Virus record (IMG/VR): IMGVR_UViG_3300035498_000356 | Coordinates: 32,001-96,000 of that record | From: a virus | Taxonomy: Duplodnaviria > Caudoviricetes | DNA length: 64,000 nt | Direction: 5' to 3' (one strand) | In this document: in pieces, positions 2,579 through 55,374 of the stretch | How positions within the stretch are numbered: the stretch's first letter is position 1 | Layout: each line of letters starts with the position of its first letter | The notes under the pieces: model-generated | Seen by the model: only the letters and a program-made list of their open reading frames with translations | The model's database searches: none | What the model was told of the DNA's origin: nothing | Program-made: the position numbers and the translations under genes

Positions 2579-2650
2579 GTTCCCAAACCAGGATTCGAAC
2601 CCGGACTAAAGGATTTAGAGTCCCCTTTGCTACCATTACAACATTCGGGA
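2579..2650 (-). tRNA. Amber suppressor tRNA (anticodon CTA), tRNA-Gln-like
   Basis: Reverse complement reads TCCCGAA TG TTGTAATGGTAGCAA A GGGGA CT-CTA-AA TCCTT TAGT CCGGG TTCGAAT CCTGG TTTGGGA. The D arm resembles that of tRNA-Gln(TTG) at 12996. Confidence 0.92.
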
Positions 2651-3128: not shown

Positions 3129-3872
3129 TTAAAAGATGTTAAATGATTCTACATCTTCAGAATTAACTTGTTTAAGAAGCTGTTTAACTAATTTAGTAAG
3201 ATTAGCAACTTCTTTCTTTTGTTCTTCGCGTTCTTGTAAGAGTGTTTGTATGTCAGCAGTATTTTTATCTATCTGTTGTTTGTGATTTTTAAGAACCCAA
3301 ATTATTCCTTGCTCTACTTCTGTAAGATGATAAATTTTCTCTCTAACTGCGATTCCCGTTTCGGAATCATGTTTGCTAGTTTTGACTATATTGAGAAGAT
3401 TCTTCTTTTCTAATGATTTATCACATTTATAAATAGTCTTCTCAGGCATATTTATAAGTGAAGATAATTCAGCATTAGAAAGTGAAATCTTTCCATAGTC
3501 TTCAACATCTGTATACATGTATTGTTGAGAAGCTACTAGATACGCTTTTTCTGTAAAGGTGAGATCTTTATTATCTAAGAATTCATAACTAAAAGATTCA
3601 AATTTATCCCACTTTAAAAATCTATATATGTTAGACCTTCCTTTCTTATAAACATATAGGTATCCAGATTCCGTCAAGTTGTCAATACATTTTCTAATTG
3701 TAGGGATTGATGCTCCAGATACTTCACTAATTTTTGATAATGATGGAAATGCTTCTTTAGTTTCCGAATTCATAAATCTTTTTATAGAAAGATAGATTAG
3801 TAAATCTTGTGGAGTCAAATCCAGGGTCATATTGTTCGGCAATTGCACATGCCGCATACTTTTATTGTTCAT
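3129..3872 (-). CDS. Replication-initiator-like winged-HTH protein
   Basis: N-terminal AFPSLSKISEVSGASIPTIRKCIDNL (HTH_36/RepA-N-like), a second HTH-like repeat and a coiled-coil tail; adjacent to iterons. Confidence 0.7.
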   Translation of the reverse strand: MNNKSMRHVQLPNNMTLDLTPQDLLIYLSIKRFMNSETKEAFPSLSKISEVSGASIPTIRKCIDNLTESGYLYVYKKGRSNIYRFLKWDKFESFSYEFLDNKDLTFTEKAYLVASQQYMYTDVEDYGKISLSNAELSSLINMPEKTIYKCDKSLEKKNLLNIVKTSKHDSETGIAVREKIYHLTEVEQGIIWVLKNHKQQIDKNTADIQTLLQEREEQKKEVANLTKLVKQLLKQVNSEDVESFNIF

Positions 3873-4025: not shown

Positions 4026-4299
4026 AGGGATTGAATATTTTTTGTATAAATTTTGTATAAATGAATTTTTAAAAATTTTTTTATTTTTTTTGATGGGGGG
4101 ATTGATTTTTTATTTTTTTTTTTGATGAATGGGGGAGTAGTCGTAGGGCGTGGTGCCCCCGCTCTACTCGTTGGGAAATCGGAATTGCTATCGCAATTCC
4201 ATTCCCAACAAAAATAAAAACACTAGCAACCTTATAACAAGTTACATTCCCGTAGGCATTGAAAAGATAGATGCCATAAGTCATTAATTAATTAAAGCT

Positions 4300-4893
4300 A
4301 TGTTACAATTGACAGAAGGCGCCCGCTGCCACAAAAGCGGAAGAAAATCCTCGACAATCAACCTCGTCGAGGGTCAGGCCTACTGCATCATCGCAGTGGG
4401 CGAGTTTTCATTTAGGCAGGATGGGAAAACAATTCTGTTTAATAAGGTGATCTTAGGAGTCCTCGACTCCGAGAGTCACCTTGTAAACGTGACCGATGAG
4501 AATCGGTCGAAGTTCATCGCCGAACACAAGACGGCGGTGAACCCGTCAAATGGTCAGTATGAAACTGTCTCCAACGTGGGCAGTTTCATCACGCTGTACA
4601 CCAACAGCGTGATGAAGTCCGGTCTCAACGAAGAGGCCGGGCTCTTCGAAAACTACTCCGACCTGTACGGGGTAGTTTTTGAAGTAGTTTCCGTTCAAGG
4701 ACGCACAGTCCTTGAAAAAGGAACTACTAAGACCTCTACCTTTATAAAGGCAGAGGTTTTAAATAAAAAGCTGTCAGTCGCAGAGATTGCGACTGACGCA
4801 GTAAAGGAACTTATTAATACGCAATACCCCAAGAACTCAATTTGGGGATTGGAAGGTAAGTTCTCTAGGATCATTCCTGCTAAGAAGCAGTGA
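4300..4893 (+). CDS. Early hypothetical protein (MLQL start)
   Basis: 197-aa ORF, GC-richer than the rest of the window. Confidence 0.8.
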   Translation: MLQLTEGARCHKSGRKSSTINLVEGQAYCIIAVGEFSFRQDGKTILFNKVILGVLDSESHLVNVTDENRSKFIAEHKTAVNPSNGQYETVSNVGSFITLYTNSVMKSGLNEEAGLFENYSDLYGVVFEVVSVQGRTVLEKGTTKTSTFIKAEVLNKKLSVAEIATDAVKELINTQYPKNSIWGLEGKFSRIIPAKKQ

Positions 4894-5000: not shown

Positions 5001-5114
5001 CTCCGCCATATCTACGCGAAAAACCCCAACCGAAACCCCAACCACTAGCCAAATGTATATCAAGTTACACTAGATGAACGTATAACAAAATTAATCACTA
5101 AATTTTTTAAGATT

Positions 5115-5702
5115 ATGTTACAGTTATTGAACGAAAATGATCAGACTGCATACGATGCAGTCGTAGCTGGTTGCAAAGCCACAGGTGATAAGGCTATAGG
5201 CGCTATTACCAAGACGAGTAAGTCGTCAGAAGGTAATAACTTTGAAGTAGGAGACAGGATTTACTTTCCGTCTCCATTACAGGCATTCGAGACTAAAATT
5301 GGAAATAGCTCTTATCCTGCTTATTATTATCTTGTTAAGGTGGTCAATAGCGGGAATACAACTTTCAAGAAGTTCTTCCCGAATTCACTCGGCAGGCGAA
5401 TTCGTCTCGTCAAGCTTGATGATTCAGGTCAAGTTGTTGACCCGATGAAGGTCGAGTTTGTAGGTGCGCGTGGCACCGCTGCTGATGAATACGGTAAACA
5501 CGTTGGCCAGCGCATTTGCGACTTCTTCGAGCAGATGGTAAGTGAGCATGGTGGAATCTTTGTCTCTGGTAAGGAAGCCATTCACACTTATCATTATGGT
5601 ACTTCTGATGTCGAACCTGCTTCCCTTTACACATGGGACTGGTTCGAAGAGGAACCTTCCGAAGAGAAGCCTACTACCAGCAGAAGAGGGAATGCTAGAT
5701 GA
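5115..5702 (+). CDS. Early hypothetical protein (MLQL start)
   Basis: 195-aa ORF with typical coding bias. Confidence 0.8.
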   Translation: MLQLLNENDQTAYDAVVAGCKATGDKAIGAITKTSKSSEGNNFEVGDRIYFPSPLQAFETKIGNSSYPAYYYLVKVVNSGNTTFKKFFPNSLGRRIRLVKLDDSGQVVDPMKVEFVGARGTAADEYGKHVGQRICDFFEQMVSEHGGIFVSGKEAIHTYHYGTSDVEPASLYTWDWFEEEPSEEKPTTSRRGNAR

Positions 5703-5899
5703 TTCTAGTATCCCTCGCCAGGCGGCACAGTGATACTCATCTTGTTTCAGAGCAAGGTGAGTATTACCGTGTTTCCAATGCTGATCGGCTAGAGGATGGT
5801 TACTGGTACTATGTAGAATTGCTTGGTATTCCTGGTAATAGGAGTATCCGCAGAGTTCTGTGTTGCATGCCAGTGACTGTTACTGGCCAGCCTCGTTGA
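5699..5899 (+). CDS. Hypothetical protein
   Basis: ATGA overlap with the upstream gene. Confidence 0.55.
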   Translation: MILVSLARRHSDTHLVSEQGEYYRVSNADRLEDGYWYYVELLGIPGNRSIRRVLCCMPVTVTGQPR

Positions 5900-6131
5900 A
5901 ATTTTGATATGACTGAGCGGTGAAGGATAAGAATAGGAGCGGTACATCCCTCTCCCACCTCTAATCTTACCGCTCAGTCACTATCATTTTCAATTTTAGC
6001 GACATCCTATAACATGATCCGTTATACGTCATTGAGCATATATGTTCAATTCTAAACGTGAATTTCGCATGACATTTGATATTTAAGTTAATAATTAAAT
6101 GCAGATTTGGTACGTGAGTATAGAGTCTGCA

Positions 6132-6182
6132 CTGTCGTGTCATAAGGCACCTGATGAGTCGCTGAAAATTGCGACGAAACAG
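6132..6182 (+). ncRNA. Hammerhead ribozyme, type III
   Basis: CTGTC | GTGTC-ataa-GGCAC (stem I) CTGATGA GTCGC-tgaaaatt-GCGAC (stem II) GAAACAG (stem III). Core complete; GUC cleavage predicted after 6136. Confidence 0.85.
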
Positions 6183-6705
6183 CATTATTTTTAGCCTTAC
6201 TGTCTCTTCCAGATGCTAAGCCATATACTTAATTCCGAGTATATGAATATGGAAGTGAGGACCTATTATACAATTAGCTGCATGTATAGTAGGTCCAATA
6301 TAAAAAATTACGAAATTTAAAAAAAGGGATGAAGGGGAAATGTTCATTTTTTGTATTTCACGGTAATTTACGTAAGTCGGCACCTCCGTTTAAGATAGTT
6401 TGTGGAGGATTTCAAACGGCATCTAGCAGCTGAGATGTTTAGTAGAAATGGAAATAACATAATATCAGTCTGATCAACTGTAAAAGTTATAGAGCCTGCA
6501 AGTAATTAAAACTATTTAGAGATAGGTATACATGTCTCTGAACACTCGCATAGATAGGTGGATTTGGTCAATCTGCATCTAGACTATCTATGTGAGTGCT
6601 ACCGACCATTTTAAACCAACAGCCTGCATGTCCAAAGTAGCAGCCTATCAATAAGATAGATTGGTGATGGGAAGAAATTTAGATTAATCATTAAAACCGA
6701 AAGAA

Positions 6706-6915
6706 ATGAAAAAAGACACAACAAACCATTTCTGGGTTGCCAGAAATGAAGACGGAAGGTTATTCATGTATAATGCTAAACCCATTCGCATAGATAACGA
6801 ATTTAGTCCTGAATATCCAGGAGTAGCAGTATGGGGACTGTCTAAATTCGATTTTCCATCTGTTACATGGGAAAACTCTCCGAAGCAAGTCAAAGTTACA
6901 TTGTTAGGCAAATAA
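6706..6915 (+). CDS. Hypothetical protein (WVARNEDG-type small phage protein)
   Basis: ORF track; A-rich leader. Confidence 0.7.
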   Translation: MKKDTTNHFWVARNEDGRLFMYNAKPIRIDNEFSPEYPGVAVWGLSKFDFPSVTWENSPKQVKVTLLGK

Positions 6916-6926
6916 AAAGTAAAATT

Positions 6927-7157
6927 ATGACTATTTATAACATAACAACGGTAAATGCTAAAGGAGTACATACCAAATCATTTTTGACAGAGGAAGAAGC
7001 ACGCAAATATTTTAATACGCGTGTTTCTAACATATCTAGATGTGAAAATGTTGCAAAATTTGAAAAGGTATCTGAAAACCTTTTCAAATTTGAAGTAATG
7101 TATTATCCAAAAGATGAAGCAGTTAATTTTATGTCATTGACTGCATCTGAACTTTAA
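6927..7157 (+). CDS. Hypothetical protein
   Basis: Internal ATG of track ORF 6867-7157, preceded by an A-rich leader. Confidence 0.65.
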   Translation: MTIYNITTVNAKGVHTKSFLTEEEARKYFNTRVSNISRCENVAKFEKVSENLFKFEVMYYPKDEAVNFMSLTASEL

Positions 7158-7163
7158 AGACAG

Positions 7164-7230
7164 CCAGGAGTCTATAAAATAATCTCTGATGAGACTGGAC
7201 GAAACACTATCTTATGATAGTGTCAGATTA
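7164..7230 (+). ncRNA. Hammerhead ribozyme, type I with minimal stem II and pseudoknot
   Basis: TAATCT CTGATGA GactggaC GAAA CACTATC-ttat-GATAGTG TC | AGATTA. Loop-II CTGG can pair with CCAG at 7164-7167; cleavage predicted after 7224. Confidence 0.85.
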
Positions 7231-7599
7231 ACAGTATTGGATAGTTTAAGTTCTCTCAGAAATGGGAGAACTCACTTTTTGTGTGTTAGAAACCATACTT
7301 GACAGATAGCTAGTCAATAGATGTTTCGACTTTCACTTTGTGAAAGTGTATTTGTACGGGATGTAGCTATCAGGTTATTCACATTAACCTAACGACTCTA
7401 CGAGGAGAGAATAGTAAGTGATAAAGGCTCCTCACTTTTTTTGTGTTACGAGGTTGAAAATCCTCATTATATATGGCAGGAATACGTTCTTGCTATATAT
7501 AATAAAATCTCTCATTATAGACAATACCTTGACGTGGTATGGGAGCTTTAAAAACTAAAATTGTCTGAATCACAAGTTAAACCATTAAATCACAAAAAA

Positions 7600-7755
7600 A
7601 TGAAGGCATGTGAACTTAAATCAGGATACCTGGTATGTCACAATGATGACATTGTACGTTTATATGACAATCTTGAGGAAGCCCAAGAGCATATAGCATA
7701 CCATAAAGGTAGCAACGACTGGAACATTCTTTACATCACAGTTAAGAATGCATAA
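7600..7755 (+). CDS. Hypothetical protein
   Basis: ATG at 7600 inside track ORF 7561-7755. Confidence 0.55.
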   Translation: MKACELKSGYLVCHNDDIVRLYDNLEEAQEHIAYHKGSNDWNILYITVKNA

Positions 7756-7881
7756 TATTACAGTTCTACTCTTCTCCTGTTAAGGTGCAAAACCAGAATT
7801 AAATAGAAGAGCGTTTTAAATCGAGAATATTATGGCGACTCGGAAAGACGAGTATTTTTTATTCACTAAACCTAAACAACT

Positions 7882-8361
7882 ATGTTCGAAGGAAAAACAG
7901 TAGATATTGAGAATATCTCAATGTATCAGCCAGAATTAGCTGATGCAATTCTCAATATTAAAGAGACCAATGAGGTCTATACGTATGATCATAAAGATCT
8001 TGATTTTATCAAAGATCTTATTAATGATCGTATGTACCATTGTCAGAGTGAACTTCAACAACATATTGATACTGCTGAAAGAAATGGCAATTTCATTTAC
8101 TATCGAGTAGATGATGAGATTCGCCACTTCTCAATTCCAGTATATGAGATGATGTTGAAATGGATAACCAGTCTTATGGATAGATGTCAAATAACGGCAT
8201 CTGACCTTAATCAAGGGATAGTACAGCAGGCATTGCGTCAGCTGTTCTATGAAGTAAGATACGGAATCTATGTTAACAATGACGACAAGTCTGTAGATGA
8301 GAAATTTACAATCTTGTCAGACTTAATGATAATTTGTTCACCATATTCACAGAACTGCTAG
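7882..8361 (+). CDS. Hypothetical protein
   Basis: 159-aa ORF ending in TAG. Confidence 0.75.
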   Translation: MFEGKTVDIENISMYQPELADAILNIKETNEVYTYDHKDLDFIKDLINDRMYHCQSELQQHIDTAERNGNFIYYRVDDEIRHFSIPVYEMMLKWITSLMDRCQITASDLNQGIVQQALRQLFYEVRYGIYVNNDDKSVDEKFTILSDLMIICSPYSQNC

Positions 8362-8394
8362 AAATAGCGGTTCTGTGAACTTAAAACTAACATT

Positions 8395-8709
8395 ATGGTA
8401 CTTATAGACACTCAACGCTTCTTTAACGACTTCGCCCAGTTAATTACTGGACATACTTCCAATTGTGTTCAAGCTGTATTACAGATACAAACTGTTGGTA
8501 TTTTCCATAGATGTACTGTATACAAAGCGACATTTGAACACGAGTGTGGAATCTTTTCAATGGCAGTATTCGAGGTTTCATTCAATGGACACCTATCATT
8601 CGTATATATTGATAATGGACTTACTTATCAATATATTGATGGCAACGTGACCAGAGTGAACAATTCTCGTAGTGACATTTATAAGAGAATAATCGAAGAA
8701 AATCAATGA
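8395..8709 (+). CDS. Hypothetical protein
   Basis: ORF track. Confidence 0.7.
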   Translation: MVLIDTQRFFNDFAQLITGHTSNCVQAVLQIQTVGIFHRCTVYKATFEHECGIFSMAVFEVSFNGHLSFVYIDNGLTYQYIDGNVTRVNNSRSDIYKRIIEENQ

Positions 8710-8912
8710 TTATGGATGCACTGATAATCGCACTTTGGTTCATCATCCCAATCGTTCTCAACTTTGATTACGATGGTCTTAAAAAGGATGATGAGTAAGA
8801 AATATATCGTTGTAGACTCCGTGGGTGCATACCTGCGGAGTTTCTGCACATACAACGAAGCACTAACATTTAAAGTCAGTAGGTGCAGGACTGACTGGAA
8901 GATAAAAACAAT

Positions 8913-9245
8913 ATGAATCTTTACAAATTCAACCATGAGATTTACATTGAAAAAGCAAATGCAAGTCTCCCGTTCACCAAAATTATTTCAGGTATATTTT
9001 GGAGAAACAGACAATTAGTTCCATTAAACAGTTGTCTTAATACAGCACGTGTAGTTGCAAGAGATCTTACATCAATAGACTTTGTACTTTTAACAGCAAA
9101 TTGTCTTACGAATCTTCAAACTATTATATTACATTACTTCCCAGATGTAAATTTTGATGAAGTAGTAATACGTAGTGAAAATGATAGAGTTAAGGTTTAC
9201 ATCCCTAACTTAAAATTATACGAAGTAAAGGAAGAGGAGGATTAG
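8913..9245 (+). CDS. Hypothetical protein (paralog family A)
   Basis: LYKFNHEIYI...LVPL motif shared with 9689 and 15243. Confidence 0.7.
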   Translation: MNLYKFNHEIYIEKANASLPFTKIISGIFWRNRQLVPLNSCLNTARVVARDLTSIDFVLLTANCLTNLQTIILHYFPDVNFDEVVIRSENDRVKVYIPNLKLYEVKEEED

Positions 9246-9247
9246 AT

Positions 9248-9685
9248 ATGGAACTACTACTAGCTATTTGTATAGTGATTGCAGGTGCAATCATTATTGC
9301 AATGATGATTGAACGAGATCGTAAACAAAAGGAGCTTGAAGAAATTCAAGACTTCTATAAAACGATTGATGTGCACGTTGAGGCAACTAAACGTGCTACT
9401 ACCCTTGAAAGACTGTTTTACATACATAAGTCTGCATGGGCTGAGGGAATCAGAAATGATAACCTCGGTCCATGCATATATGGCATGTTCAGAACAGCAG
9501 ACATTAACGATATGACAAAAGATGAAGTTTATCTTGGCAATATCAACGGTTTATTTACACAGCCTTTAACATTCTGGGAATCACAGGATGATCAAGATGC
9601 ATATAAAACTGTTTTTAGACAGTATCAACTTCATCTACTTACAAATTTCAAAGCAGTTAAACTATCCAAATCTCAACAGAGTTAA
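9248..9685 (+). CDS. Membrane-anchored hypothetical protein
   Basis: N-terminal hydrophobic helix. Confidence 0.75.
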   Translation: MELLLAICIVIAGAIIIAMMIERDRKQKELEEIQDFYKTIDVHVEATKRATTLERLFYIHKSAWAEGIRNDNLGPCIYGMFRTADINDMTKDEVYLGNINGLFTQPLTFWESQDDQDAYKTVFRQYQLHLLTNFKAVKLSKSQQS

Positions 9686-9688
9686 AAA

Positions 9689-10027
9689 ATGAAAATATAC
9701 AAATATTGCAATAAAGTTTATATCAATGCCGAAGATGTAGATGCTAACAGAAATTCTGTATATCATACTATATTATGGCACGATATGACACTATTTCCTT
9801 TAGAGGAAATAGTTGAAAGCGTATTGAATTCATTCATATATAATAACAGTGTAAGTCTATGGCTTAATGGCTCTCTCAATATGAATGATATTAAAGCAAT
9901 CTGTAATGTCTTTGAAATAGGACAAGATCAGATTAAAATTGAAGCTACATCTATAGAAGATGATTTGGCAATAGGTTTAACTCTAGAAAATATCAGCTAC
10001 TCCGCAGTTGGCAGAAAAGGAGAATGA
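9689..10027 (+). CDS. Hypothetical protein (paralog family A)
   Basis: IYKYCNKVYI...LFPL. Confidence 0.7.
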   Translation: MKIYKYCNKVYINAEDVDANRNSVYHTILWHDMTLFPLEEIVESVLNSFIYNNSVSLWLNGSLNMNDIKAICNVFEIGQDQIKIEATSIEDDLAIGLTLENISYSAVGRKGE

Positions 10028-10272
10028 GTTGGGCAGAAGAACAACCTTGGTTTGGTACTGAAGATTTAGTGCTAGACCAAGAAGAAAGAGAGCAAGAGTT
10101 ATTAGAGAATCATCTTTGGGAAACCAGAGATGGTTCTCTATATAATATAAGAGACATGGAAACCACTCATATAAAGAACTGTATTAAGATGATATACAGG
10201 TCTAATGGTCAGTGGAGACACTCATACTTGCGACTTTTTGAATCCGAGTTAAGAAGAAGAAAATTCACATAA
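10024..10272 (+). CDS. Hypothetical protein (WETRDG...IRDMETTHIKN phage family)
   Basis: ORF track; ATGA overlap. Confidence 0.75.
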   Translation: MSWAEEQPWFGTEDLVLDQEEREQELLENHLWETRDGSLYNIRDMETTHIKNCIKMIYRSNGQWRHSYLRLFESELRRRKFT

Positions 10273-10284
10273 AATTATTTTAGT

Positions 10285-10482
10285 ATGTACACAGAAAAAG
10301 AAGTAAAAACAGCATTAGAGATTGTAGCTCTAATGACACCTCCTGTTTTATTGACAGAAGAGCAGTTTAAAGAAGAGTACAATTCTCTTTCAGAGAAGAT
10401 GCAAAAGCTTGTATCTGCTGTTCTAATGGCAAACAAAGCAACTCGTGATCTTAGAGACTTCATGGATTCACTTGCAGACTAA
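10285..10482 (+). CDS. Hypothetical protein
   Basis: ORF track. Confidence 0.65.
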   Translation: MYTEKEVKTALEIVALMTPPVLLTEEQFKEEYNSLSEKMQKLVSAVLMANKATRDLRDFMDSLAD

Positions 10483-10661
10483 ACATCTTGAAAACTTTTT
10501 AACACAGTGAAGTTTAGAAATATTTATAGCTGTATATTATTTTTTCTTAGCTTTTGAAGCGAATAATAGTAACTTCCCATAAAAACTAAGTGGAGTGACC
10601 ACGAAAGTGGTAATTAAATTACCTGGAATTAAATTAAATCCTATCCAGGAGGTAAATAATT

Positions 10662-10883
10662 ATGACACTAGGTCGTAATAGCATCATCGCAAAAATCATG
10701 GTCCCGAATGCAATTCAGTTTGAAGGTGAAGTCATTGTTCAATGTGACAAGCTTCATCGCATCTGCGATATGGAACCGCGCATTAATGACATCTTTAATC
10801 AGTTTAAAGGTCGTCAGCTAGACAGTATCAATGTCTATGAAGAACTTGAAGAAGAACTTAATGATTATTTTGTAAAGTTATGA
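10662..10883 (+). CDS. Hypothetical protein
   Basis: ORF track. Confidence 0.65.
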   Translation: MTLGRNSIIAKIMVPNAIQFEGEVIVQCDKLHRICDMEPRINDIFNQFKGRQLDSINVYEELEEELNDYFVKL

Positions 10884-11284
10884 ATAGACTTCCGATAGCT
10901 AGCAAACACATTGATGCGTTAAGAGACTGGATAGCCACGTATAAGAATGCAATTGTTACTACTGATCAAATCAGGAGCATTGCGATAATATGCGGCTTAC
11001 CTAAAAATTCAACGTTCATTAGCACTTTTACAAAAGCTCCATTTATTAAAAAAGTAGCTAGAGGTAAATACAAATTTGTCTCTGATGTTACTGAAGGAGC
11101 TTTAGATAATACTATTAAAGAATACGGATGTATTCTTAAGAAGTATGAATCTAATAAGGCTAGAAAGTTGTCTATTCCCAAACAAGAAATCTTAGTTGCG
11201 CCAACAATGCAACAGAAAGCACTTGAACAATTCGCAATTGACTTCTTAAATACACTTGGATATAGAATTTATAAAAAGTGTTAA
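10880..11284 (+). CDS. Hypothetical protein, possibly wHTH
   Basis: ORF track; IKKVARGKYKF wing-like motif. Confidence 0.65.
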   Translation: MNRLPIASKHIDALRDWIATYKNAIVTTDQIRSIAIICGLPKNSTFISTFTKAPFIKKVARGKYKFVSDVTEGALDNTIKEYGCILKKYESNKARKLSIPKQEILVAPTMQQKALEQFAIDFLNTLGYRIYKKC

Positions 11285-11287
11285 AAT

Positions 11288-11318
11288 TTTGAAGTTTAAG
11301 GAAAAAACCTTATATTTG
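11288..11318 (+). promoter_or_regulatory. Bacteroidetes promoter (TTTG-N19-TATATTTG) driving the RNA island
   Basis: Consensus match immediately upstream of the tRNA/ncRNA array. Confidence 0.75.
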
Positions 11319-20239: not shown

Positions 20240-21895
20240 ATGTTTGATAAGAAAGTTACTTCTCTTATGGAGAATTGTTCAATCGAGAACAAATTTATTA
20301 AGTCTGGACTTATATTAGGTTCAAAGACTCTTTCTGAAGAAGGAGCAGTAAAGTTGTCTACAACAGGAAATGATTTTGTAGATCAATTTGCTTCTATATC
20401 TAAGTACAAGACTCCTAGATCTTATTATGAAGTAGATAAAGATATGAGATTATTATGGAGTCAGAACCCACTTCTTTGTCTAAAGTTATCAGTCTATATT
20501 AGGATGATAACGAGAACTCCTACTTATATTTCTAATAAAAATAAAACTAAGAAGTTTTCAATACAAAAAGGACAAGGATTAAAGAATGAAGGAATTATGA
20601 GAATAATGTGGATAGCTATTAACTATCCTAAAGTATTCTATAAAAATATAACACTTTTCATTGCTGCTGGTTCTTGGAAAGATATTGTAACAATGATGAA
20701 TTGGGATTTACAATTCAATGGATGGAATAATAGAGTTCTTCCATGGAATTTCTTAATGCAGACAATTAGAGCCGGATTAATATGTAATGAAACAACACAT
20801 CTTGTCCGTAAATATCTTCCGACAATTCGCAGTAATAAAAAGTGCACAACTCTTGAATCACAAGCTGATACATTAATTGGTAGATATATAGCTAAAAATC
20901 TATTTCCTAAAGAAGATAAAATTACGCGATATACTGAATATCGTAAATTAAAATCTAAGGGATTAGCACATAAATGGCAACAACAAATTAGTAATCAACT
21001 TTATAATGCAATTGATTTTAATACTATTCCAGGAAAAGCATTGCATTTATTAGTGCACTCCAAATTCTTAAATAACCATAATTTAACAGACAAATATTCT
21101 GAATGGATTAGTAACAAGAAATCTGTTAAATACACTGGATTTGTATTTGAGATATTTAATGATATTAATGGAAATACTGAAAAACATATACTTGATACTG
21201 CTAATGCTCAATTTAATAAATTACTACAACAATGCAATGCATATAGTAAATTATTGCCTATACTAGATAAATCTGGTTCAATGGCTAGTCAATGTATTGG
21301 ATGCAACATGACTGCTTATAATGTAGCTAAAGCAATGGCATTATATTTTTCTAGTTGTTTAACTGGACAATTTACTAATGTATATGGTGAGTTTAATAAT
21401 AAATGCGAATTACGTAAATGGAAAGGTGAAACTGCAACAGACAAGTGGATTAATGCTGGAAACAATATAGCATATGGATCTACTAATTTTGAATCTGTGA
21501 TTGATTTATTAATAGAGATTAAAGAAGCAGGTGTAGATGAATCAGAATTCCCAGAGGGCATATTATGCTTGAGCGACGGCGAATATTCGGATTTTAATCA
21601 TAGAAATGAAACTATGTTTAAAGTTTCTATTAATAAATTAAAGCTAGCAGGGTTTTCTGATGAATATGTCAATAACTTTAAAGTAATACTATGGGATATT
21701 CCTAATTATTTTTATAGTTCTCACCCTGAAACTAAATATGAATCATATGCAAATTGTCCTAATATGTTTCATATGTCAGGATTTGATGCTTCGATTATTA
21801 GTTTCTTGCTTGAAGGCAATATAAATCCATGTAATTCTAAAGAACTATTTTTATCTTGTATGAATCAAGAGTTATTAAATAAATTAACAATATGA
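20240..21895 (+). CDS. DUF2828/TROVE-like helical domain plus VWA domain protein
   Basis: MIDAS DKSGSM, GSTNF and LSDGE motifs; N-terminal STTGNDFVDQF, GQG and GSWKD motifs. Confidence 0.75.
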   Translation: MFDKKVTSLMENCSIENKFIKSGLILGSKTLSEEGAVKLSTTGNDFVDQFASISKYKTPRSYYEVDKDMRLLWSQNPLLCLKLSVYIRMITRTPTYISNKNKTKKFSIQKGQGLKNEGIMRIMWIAINYPKVFYKNITLFIAAGSWKDIVTMMNWDLQFNGWNNRVLPWNFLMQTIRAGLICNETTHLVRKYLPTIRSNKKCTTLESQADTLIGRYIAKNLFPKEDKITRYTEYRKLKSKGLAHKWQQQISNQLYNAIDFNTIPGKALHLLVHSKFLNNHNLTDKYSEWISNKKSVKYTGFVFEIFNDINGNTEKHILDTANAQFNKLLQQCNAYSKLLPILDKSGSMASQCIGCNMTAYNVAKAMALYFSSCLTGQFTNVYGEFNNKCELRKWKGETATDKWINAGNNIAYGSTNFESVIDLLIEIKEAGVDESEFPEGILCLSDGEYSDFNHRNETMFKVSINKLKLAGFSDEYVNNFKVILWDIPNYFYSSHPETKYESYANCPNMFHMSGFDASIISFLLEGNINPCNSKELFLSCMNQELLNKLTI

Positions 21896-54990: not shown

Positions 54991-55374
54991 ATGAAATTAG
55001 AACCACTTTTGCCACTTATTAAAAAGTATCAACGAGCTGCAAAGTCTGACGATTATACCGAAACTGATAGAATTGGAGAAGAATTAGAAGATGCTCTTTG
55101 TGAAGATCATAGAAGATTAAATTGTGAAATTACATTAAAATTCTCTACTGATTTGAGTGAATTAAATAGTCAAGATTGTAATTTTCTATCATATTTAACA
55201 GAGGATGATGTAATTGACCCATTGCAATCAGCGTCAACATATATTAATGAAAATATTGAATATTGTTATAATAATTCATATTTAGATAACAATGGAAGAA
55301 GTATCATTGTAAAAATAACTGATTCAACAGGTAAAGTAATATACCAAAATAAAATGAATGGTGTTAATTGGTAA
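54991..55374 (+). CDS. Hypothetical protein
   Basis: ORF track. Confidence 0.7.
   Translation: MKLEPLLPLIKKYQRAAKSDDYTETDRIGEELEDALCEDHRRLNCEITLKFSTDLSELNSQDCNFLSYLTEDDVIDPLQSASTYINENIEYCYNNSYLDNNGRSIIVKITDSTGKVIYQNKMNGVNW

Follow-up and report, generated by a model that had tools for sequence, protein, structure and literature searches.

The stretch analyzed here (hereafter the window, in its full length of 64,000 nucleotides (nt)) covers bases 32001-96000 of the IMG/VR virus record IMGVR_UViG_3300035498_000356, a 155,354-bp genome with direct terminal repeats that is rated complete. On its + strand, the window carries two hammerhead ribozymes of unlike type, a type III copy and a type I copy of the RAGATH-1 family, which bracket a structured RNA and two small genes. 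From their sequences, both motifs are rather probably active and independent hammerheads that release a linear RNA of 1,088 nt, an arrangement that we read as a form of transcript punctuation or insulation. A preliminary description of this DNA had placed two hammerheads, one of type III and one of type I, at these very positions on the same strand, which is confirmed by matches to the Rfam families RF00008 and RF03152 with complete cores. Likewise, its cleavage positions, after 6136 and after 7224, are borne out by the reading of the cores and by a classifier that checks the stems, its span of 6137-7224 does amount to 1,088 nt, and the structured RNA and two small open reading frames (ORFs) that it described between the ribozymes are indeed present, the former folding with a z-score of -3.99 and the latter having homologues. 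The two ribozymes are as follows.

6129-6185, + strand: type III hammerhead ribozyme, matching RF00008, with a complete core, stems of 5, 5 and 4 base pairs (bp) and a covarying family
7157-7229, + strand: RAGATH-1 hammerhead ribozyme (type I), matching RF03152 above the cut-off, with a covarying pseudoknot

Regarding the type III hammerhead, all elements of the catalytic core are in place (GUC 6134-6136, CUGAUGA 6151-6157 and GAAA 6176-6179) and the cleavage site falls between C6136 and G6137. This agrees with the hammerhead consensus of CUGANGA, GAAA and a UH (not G) cleavage triplet following an A15.1-U16.1 pair. The classifier assigns 5 bp to stem I, 5 bp to stem II and 4 bp to stem III; the first two are capped by loops and the third is open, which is the topology of type III. 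The match to RF00008 reaches 42.8 bits (E-value of 5.6e-6 for the window and of 3.1e-9 for the genome). Across seven distinct type III relatives from phage contigs, 90.8% of the cells are paired and both-sided changes are seen at 9 of the 17 pairs, a degree of covariation that none of 500 shuffles reaches and that no slid register comes close to. The homologue found in a related phage genome, G002, shares 93% identity with it and, at 49.8 bits, exceeds the curated gathering cut-off of Rfam.

The second ribozyme matches RF03152 with 78.3 bits over model positions 1-77 (cut-off 56.3, E-value of 1.3e-11) and its cleavage site lies between C7224 and A7225. Its stem I is open, AAUCU being paired with AGAUU, which makes it a type I hammerhead, and in place of stem II it has a pseudoknot, in which CCAG (7164-7167) in the loop of an upstream hairpin pairs with CUGG (7195-7198) in the loop of the short stem II. 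Complementarity of at least 4 bases is kept at this place in 24 of 26 distinct RAGATH-1 copies from phage contigs with differing sequences, among them CUAGG/CCUAG, CUCGG/CCGAG and CUUGG/CCAAG. The stop codon of the second small gene (ORF 6927-7157) abuts the ribozyme.

These two are the only ribozymes detected in the 155,354-bp genome: no further hammerhead and no other Rfam ribozyme was found when the whole window was scanned at permissive E-values and the remaining genome at gathering scores. A match to the core pattern at 55046 is at chance level and lacks stems. By simple arithmetic, two ribozymes have a chance of about 0.7% to fall on the same strand and within 1.1 kb of each other. Cleavage in trans was ruled out by inspection for both copies, stems I and II of the type III copy being closed and the RAGATH-1 cleavage site being located within its own stem III hairpin, with no free substrate arms in either.

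In the mechanism that we favor, the two hammerheads would cut the + strand transcript of the small-gene region co-transcriptionally and independently of each other. The type III cut would remove the upstream RNA and leave a 5'-OH RNA headed by a compact ribozyme fold; RAGATH-1, cutting 5 nt before its own end, would shed the RNA beyond its cut, a terminator-like hairpin included, and leave a 2',3'-cyclic phosphate end capped by its own fold. Because the 5' ribozyme is of type III and the 3' ribozyme of type I, both ribozyme bodies would remain as terminal folds, the first on the RNA downstream of its cut and the second on the RNA upstream of it, that is, in both cases on the cassette. The product, uncoupled from its neighbors, would be a linear RNA of 1,088 nt in which two small genes follow a structured leader of 520 nt. 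The preliminary description had the phage self-excise the RNA 6137-7224, which would be stabilized or circularized. The excision is plausible since the motifs are intact and covarying and the chemistry of hammerheads, which yields 5'-OH and 2',3'-cyclic phosphate ends, is established; the circle found no support, as discussed below. What the sequences show is the integrity of the motifs, their covariation, their rarity in the genome and the recurrence of such clusters in phages. From these we infer cleavage in vivo, the chemistry of the ends and effects on stability or translation for the window pair, and protection from end-dependent nucleases along with uncoupling from neighboring transcription can reasonably be expected. 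The parts of the cassette and of its flanks are listed below.

5905-5985, + strand: long hairpin of very high stability with a U-rich tract after it (-39.7 kcal/mol, z = -8.2)
6186-6705, + strand: ORF-free folding leader RNA of 520 nt (minimum free energy z = -3.99)
6543-6598, + strand: 15-bp hairpin within the leader (-27.8 kcal/mol, z = -5.1)
6706-6915, + strand: small gene for a protein of 69 amino acids (aa), from an uncharacterised large family of all-beta proteins of about 65 aa (316 distant homologues)
6927-7157, + strand: small gene, 76 aa, with a 66%-identical homologue in the related phage G001
7249-7288, + strand: terminator-like hairpin with a T-run, from a terminator scan (-15 kcal/mol, z = -2.5)
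7402-7448, + strand: weaker second hairpin with a T-run, bearing the second copy of an 18-nt repeat (family D9, 94% identity)
7600-7755, + strand: next small gene, 51 aa from ATG 7600, with homologues located after ribozymes in G001 and G002

The leader folds more stably than its shuffles and contains no plausible ORF, whether translated with table 11, with TAG read as glutamine, or with both TAG and TGA read through. It has no match in Rfam and no homologue in GenBank phages. Regarding the two proteins encoded between the ribozymes, neither matched a Pfam or PHROG family. For the 69-aa protein, 316 representatives of its family were retrieved at E <= 0.001 and the AlphaFold2 model is all-beta with a mean confidence (pLDDT) of 93.9, for which no fold match was found in the PDB. 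The family includes a 137-aa member fused to the C-terminal domain of the RNA polymerase alpha subunit (PF03118), and this fusion hints at a possible link of the family to transcription.

Upstream of the cassette, the long hairpin 5905-5985 is located 145 nt ahead of the type III ribozyme and may mark where the preceding transcription unit ends. Downstream, the terminator-like hairpin 7249-7288 lies 25 nt past the second cleavage site and bears the first copy of the 18-nt repeat; the second hairpin, 7402-7448, folds no better than shuffles and is a weak part of this picture. The gene that follows was listed with a TTG start at 7561 (ORF 7561-7755). This start is probably wrong, as judged from an indel between strains in the A-run just before 7600 and from the homologues in G001 and G002, which begin at the residue matching ATG 7600.

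A fragment of a 98%-identical strain (L046) differs from the window at 8 positions in 6201-7600 versus 60 in 7601-9666. Only two differences fall in the leader, and the difference T6593C converts a G.U pair of the 6543-6598 hairpin to G-C; four others are inside ORF 6706-6915, with a spacing of 3 nt. A separate observation is that the 630 nt of 6968-7600 are devoid of any difference, the genes just downstream being 2.9% different; this invariant stretch covers the RAGATH-1 ribozyme and a 370-nt ORF-free spacer with hairpins.

Hammerheads of other phages were collected by two pattern scans of viral sequences. Searching for the RAGATH-1 core gave 32 loci, and the stem II/loop II module found in the type III copy gave more than 118. 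As the type I model of Rfam (RF00163) misses these type I copies of phages, we wrote the classifier mentioned above, which verifies all three stems and returned calls in 143 loci (127 type I, 35 RAGATH-1 and 13 type III). Two or three hammerheads on the same strand are present at 21 of these 143 loci, mostly 320-620 nt apart, and most of the clustered units hold a single small ORF, in most of them starting 8-44 nt past the cut. Within this sample, the order type III followed by RAGATH-1 is unique to the window locus. Six viral contigs of 13-14 kb (L054, L065, L077, L100, L134 and L145) carry three type I hammerheads on one strand near the contig end; the ribozymes are 375-410 nt apart, and each unit contains one ORF of 67-99 aa that begins 8-44 nt past the cut.

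Among records of about 150-165 kb, RAGATH-1 was found in all six examined (the window genome and five others, three of which share genes with the window region) and type III in only two. In G001, the order is RAGATH-1, a homologue of ORF 6927-7157, RAGATH-1, a homologue of 7600-7755 and a type I hammerhead; the first of these homologues and the RAGATH-1 copy on its 3' side are 80% identical to the window, and the DNA around them is unrelated. In G002, RAGATH-1 and type III stand back to back, with 54 nt between their cuts, immediately ahead of the homologue of 7600-7755. In G003, G004 and G005, RAGATH-1 stands alone, apart from a core-mutated copy that G003 carries 4.7 kb downstream. The second ribozyme of the closest relatives thus differs in type, in order and in spacing. 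Because RAGATH-1 stays while its companion varies, sequence comparison identifies RAGATH-1 as the conserved element and the two-ribozyme bracket as a unit that is not conserved.

The core-mutated copy of G003 (contig L016, 5001-5060, + strand) is of type I with GAGA where the core has GAAA, and is probably decayed or weak. Its stem II is identical to that of the window type III copy and its loop II is near-identical, with one base differing. One core/stem II module is present here in two topologies, type III in the window and G002 and type I in L016.

The reordering of ribozymes among relatives lends itself to another reading, in which the ribozymes would mainly mark the borders of exchangeable gene modules, acting, beside small accessory genes, as conserved homology patches of about 60-75 nt for recombination between co-infecting phages; the cassette would then result from genome mosaicism, and the exact pair would have no joint RNA function. 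Indeed, the same ribozymes are found in other orders in G001 and G002, the ORF 6927-7157 homologue of G001 stands with its 3' RAGATH-1 amid unrelated DNA, and the stem II/loop II module is common to ribozymes of both topologies; these shuffled orders may hint at a role as homology patches. Against this, intact catalytic cores and covarying stems point to selection on the RNA, which module borders leave unexplained. The exchange of modules is moreover compatible with RNA processing and does not exclude it. As a substitute for processing, we regard it as unlikely.

The release of a defined linear RNA has itself several points to face. The type III copy, at 42.8 bits, is below the curated gathering cut-off of 48.5 bits, a shortfall due to two mismatched outer pairs of stem III, and its 4-bp stem III is the shortest of its family. 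Of the six other distinct type III copies, five have an ATG about 20-30 nt past the ribozyme and would act as 5' leader elements; the window copy is the odd one among them since it precedes 520 ORF-free nt, with which the role of a 5' leader of an mRNA fits poorly. Furthermore, no promoter could be placed, the Bacteroides-type motif TAnnTTTG being absent from the + strand over 5245-11310. A scan for sigma-70 promoters gave background level only.

The weaknesses of the type III copy could mean that RAGATH-1 alone matters, for the 5' end or expression of the 51-aa gene or for the 3' end of the upstream message, and that no defined 1,088-nt RNA accumulates, the type III copy being weak, conditional or decaying. 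The presence of RAGATH-1 in six of six records, with type III in only two, agrees with this view, as does the score of the window type III copy with its short stem III and mismatched outer pairs; the GAGA copy of the related phage, in addition, indicates that such copies do decay. On the other hand, every base of the type III catalytic core and both stems I and II are intact, a 4-bp stem III is enough for cleavage in cis in many natural type III hammerheads, and the orthologue of G002 passes the cut-off. We judge it quite unlikely that RAGATH-1 acts alone and retain the independent cleavage by both ribozymes as the preferred reading.

The least tenable proposal takes up the boldest reading of the preliminary description, a coding circular RNA; the 1,088-nt RNA would be closed into a stable circle by a host RtcB-type ligase or by the reversed hammerhead reaction. 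In its favor, the ends produced by hammerheads are exactly the substrates of RtcB, as established biochemically, RtcB is common in bacteria and was present in Bacteroides thetaiotaomicron, which served as the control of our search in the phage, and with the ..GUGUC at its 3' end the cassette could restore three of the four pairs in stem III of the type III ribozyme. Nonetheless, neither RtcB nor any RNA ligase was found in the phage, the sole ligase-like gene of which encodes an ATP-dependent DNA ligase (PF01068, 78.6 bits). In viroid and retrozyme junctions a single ribozyme is rebuilt, whereas here the ribozymes are of unlike type and the joined ends give 3 bp only, which correspond to the conserved GUC plus one base and do not hold in G002. 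In the folded cassette the termini are unpaired and a terminal duplex is no better than in shuffles (P = 0.27); a 20-mer spanning the junction was absent from assembled metagenome contigs, a weak test of low power; similar clusters gave no detected circular products (PMC3088659); and the bracket is not conserved among relatives. A coding circle is therefore very improbable. There is also scant chance that type III and type I together form a natural release device from which host RtcB would make a circle serving at once as structured non-coding RNA and as the message for two small proteins. Such a device, if real, would provide the first case of a ribozyme-made circular RNA of a DNA phage that codes for protein.

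Regarding the genome in which the pair resides, the helicase encoded in the window has its nearest proteins in human-faecal phages and more distant matches in crAss-like Bacteroides phages and Cellulophaga phages. The phage encodes a tRNA array and a suppressor tRNA with a CUA anticodon; the latter, which reads UAG, is located at 2579-2650 (- strand), on the strand opposite to the array, and makes reassignment of TAG in part of the phage possible. A replication-initiator gene occupies 3129-3872 on the minus strand. From about 4300 on, all long ORFs are on the + strand, with many small ORFs first and the replication module later, and since the ribozyme pair sits about 2 kb into this rightward string, it is plausible that the cassette is expressed early, as the preliminary description assumed. 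Close relatives sought in viral contigs through the neighboring protein 5115-5702 were not found. Ahead of the paralogous genes at 4300 and 5115, short motifs are repeated on the + strand (4233-4246 and 5056-5069; 4286-4310 and 5101-5125). Further downstream, a 551-aa protein (20240-21895, + strand) matches PHROG 850 ("RNA-binding protein"); in Pfam, it has only sub-threshold matches to DUF7788 and DUF2828, and no TROVE domain was seen.

Hammerhead brackets of another composition exist in Crassvirales genomes of about 97 kb, where a classic type I hammerhead and RAGATH-1 enclose a conserved RNA of 400-460 nt without ORF (L004 1-560, - strand; L020 1380-1940, - strand; L025 1570-2190, + strand). 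No similarity was detected with nhmmer between the leader 6186-6705 and this inter-hammerhead RNA of crAss-like phages, and a 9-mer that they have in common is attributable to chance. The L025 bracket has a tRNA about 140 nt downstream; L004, which is NC_055902.1 (crAss-like phage cr131_1), has four hammerheads in alternation with tRNA-Met, tRNA-Gln and a 70-aa ORF. The hammerhead copies of Crassvirales genomes such as cr131_1 and cr272_1 are unannotated in their records, and we found no paper on hammerheads in crAss-like phages in the literature. Sub-threshold matches to the RAGATH-12 RNA were obtained in the window (10567-10654, + strand, 51.8 bits for a cut-off of 75) and in two crAss-like contigs (L020 300-379 and L002 2644-2723, both on the - strand). 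In all three phages, these matches are downstream of hammerheads and beside tRNA genes, so that hammerhead(s), a RAGATH-12-like RNA and a tRNA array seem to recur in this order.

Compared with known systems, the cassette resembles the RNAs of Avsunviroidae, satellite RNAs, retrozymes and engineered RtcB-ligated circles (PMC7761336, PMC7229834) in that flanking ribozymes would release an RNA with 5'-OH and 2',3'-cyclic phosphate ends. Those circles rely either on repeats of the same ribozyme that are restored at the junction or on designed stems that pair the ends, while the window cassette has differing ribozymes, unpaired ends, no repeat unit and no evidence of a circle; contrary to viroid-like and retrozyme-like units, it is bounded by type III on one side and RAGATH-1 type I on the other. 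Another parallel is the HHphage hammerhead of the haloviruses HF1 and HF2, which heads an early phage transcript whose mapped 5' end coincides with the cleavage site; it differs by belonging to an archaeal virus, by its variant core and by being a single ribozyme placed 13 nt before a start codon (PMC3088659).

Among engineered devices, the Tornado system is a ribozyme-flanked RNA circle ligated by RtcB, and RiboJ is a 5'-UTR (untranslated region) insulator built from a type III hammerhead. Five of the six other distinct phage type III copies are similar to RiboJ in being located about 20-30 nt before a start codon, where they would strip the upstream RNA. The window copy shares the core and topology of RF00008 and RiboJ; it differs by a score under the Rfam cut-off, a stem III of 4 bp and 520 non-coding nt where a start codon would be expected to follow. 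Regarding the second ribozyme, it is an ordinary member of the RAGATH-1 family (RF03152), with a full-length match and the upstream hairpin and pseudoknot in place of stem II, and shows no notable difference from it.

The most direct counterpart remains the clustered hammerheads of prophages, where several ribozymes often surround one gene or a short run of genes (Perreault et al., 2011, PLoS Comput Biol; PMC3088659). Processing into operon-length or gene-length mRNAs, or possibly into spliced or circular products, was proposed for them, the latter being looked for and undetected, and of the tandem hammerheads three were found to cleave in vitro and one in Escherichia coli (PMC3088659). More broadly, later work has noted a still unexplained enrichment of ribozymes in the vicinity of other ribozymes and of phage genes, and describes the role of bacterial and phage hammerheads as unknown (PMC10085705; PMC6765202). 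The present locus bears on this question without opening a new category: it is of the same kind as these gene-flanking clusters, for which the arrangement and the hypotheses have been published since 2011. It is a clean study case, a gut phage whose complete genome of 155 kb holds exactly two ribozymes, and its relatives, with their reordered ribozymes around shared genes, provide a natural experiment on whether ribozyme ends, with their 5'-OH, cyclic phosphate and terminal folds, stabilize or insulate phage messages. As in the clusters of Perreault et al., same-strand hammerheads within 1-2 kb surround small non-conserved genes in phage DNA, here two + strand ribozymes 1,088 nt apart around two small genes in a complete phage genome. 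It departs from them by pairing type III with RAGATH-1 type I, so that both ribozyme bodies would be retained on the released RNA, and from the usual units of 320-620 nt by its length of 1,088 nt, the first half of which is an ORF-free structured RNA.

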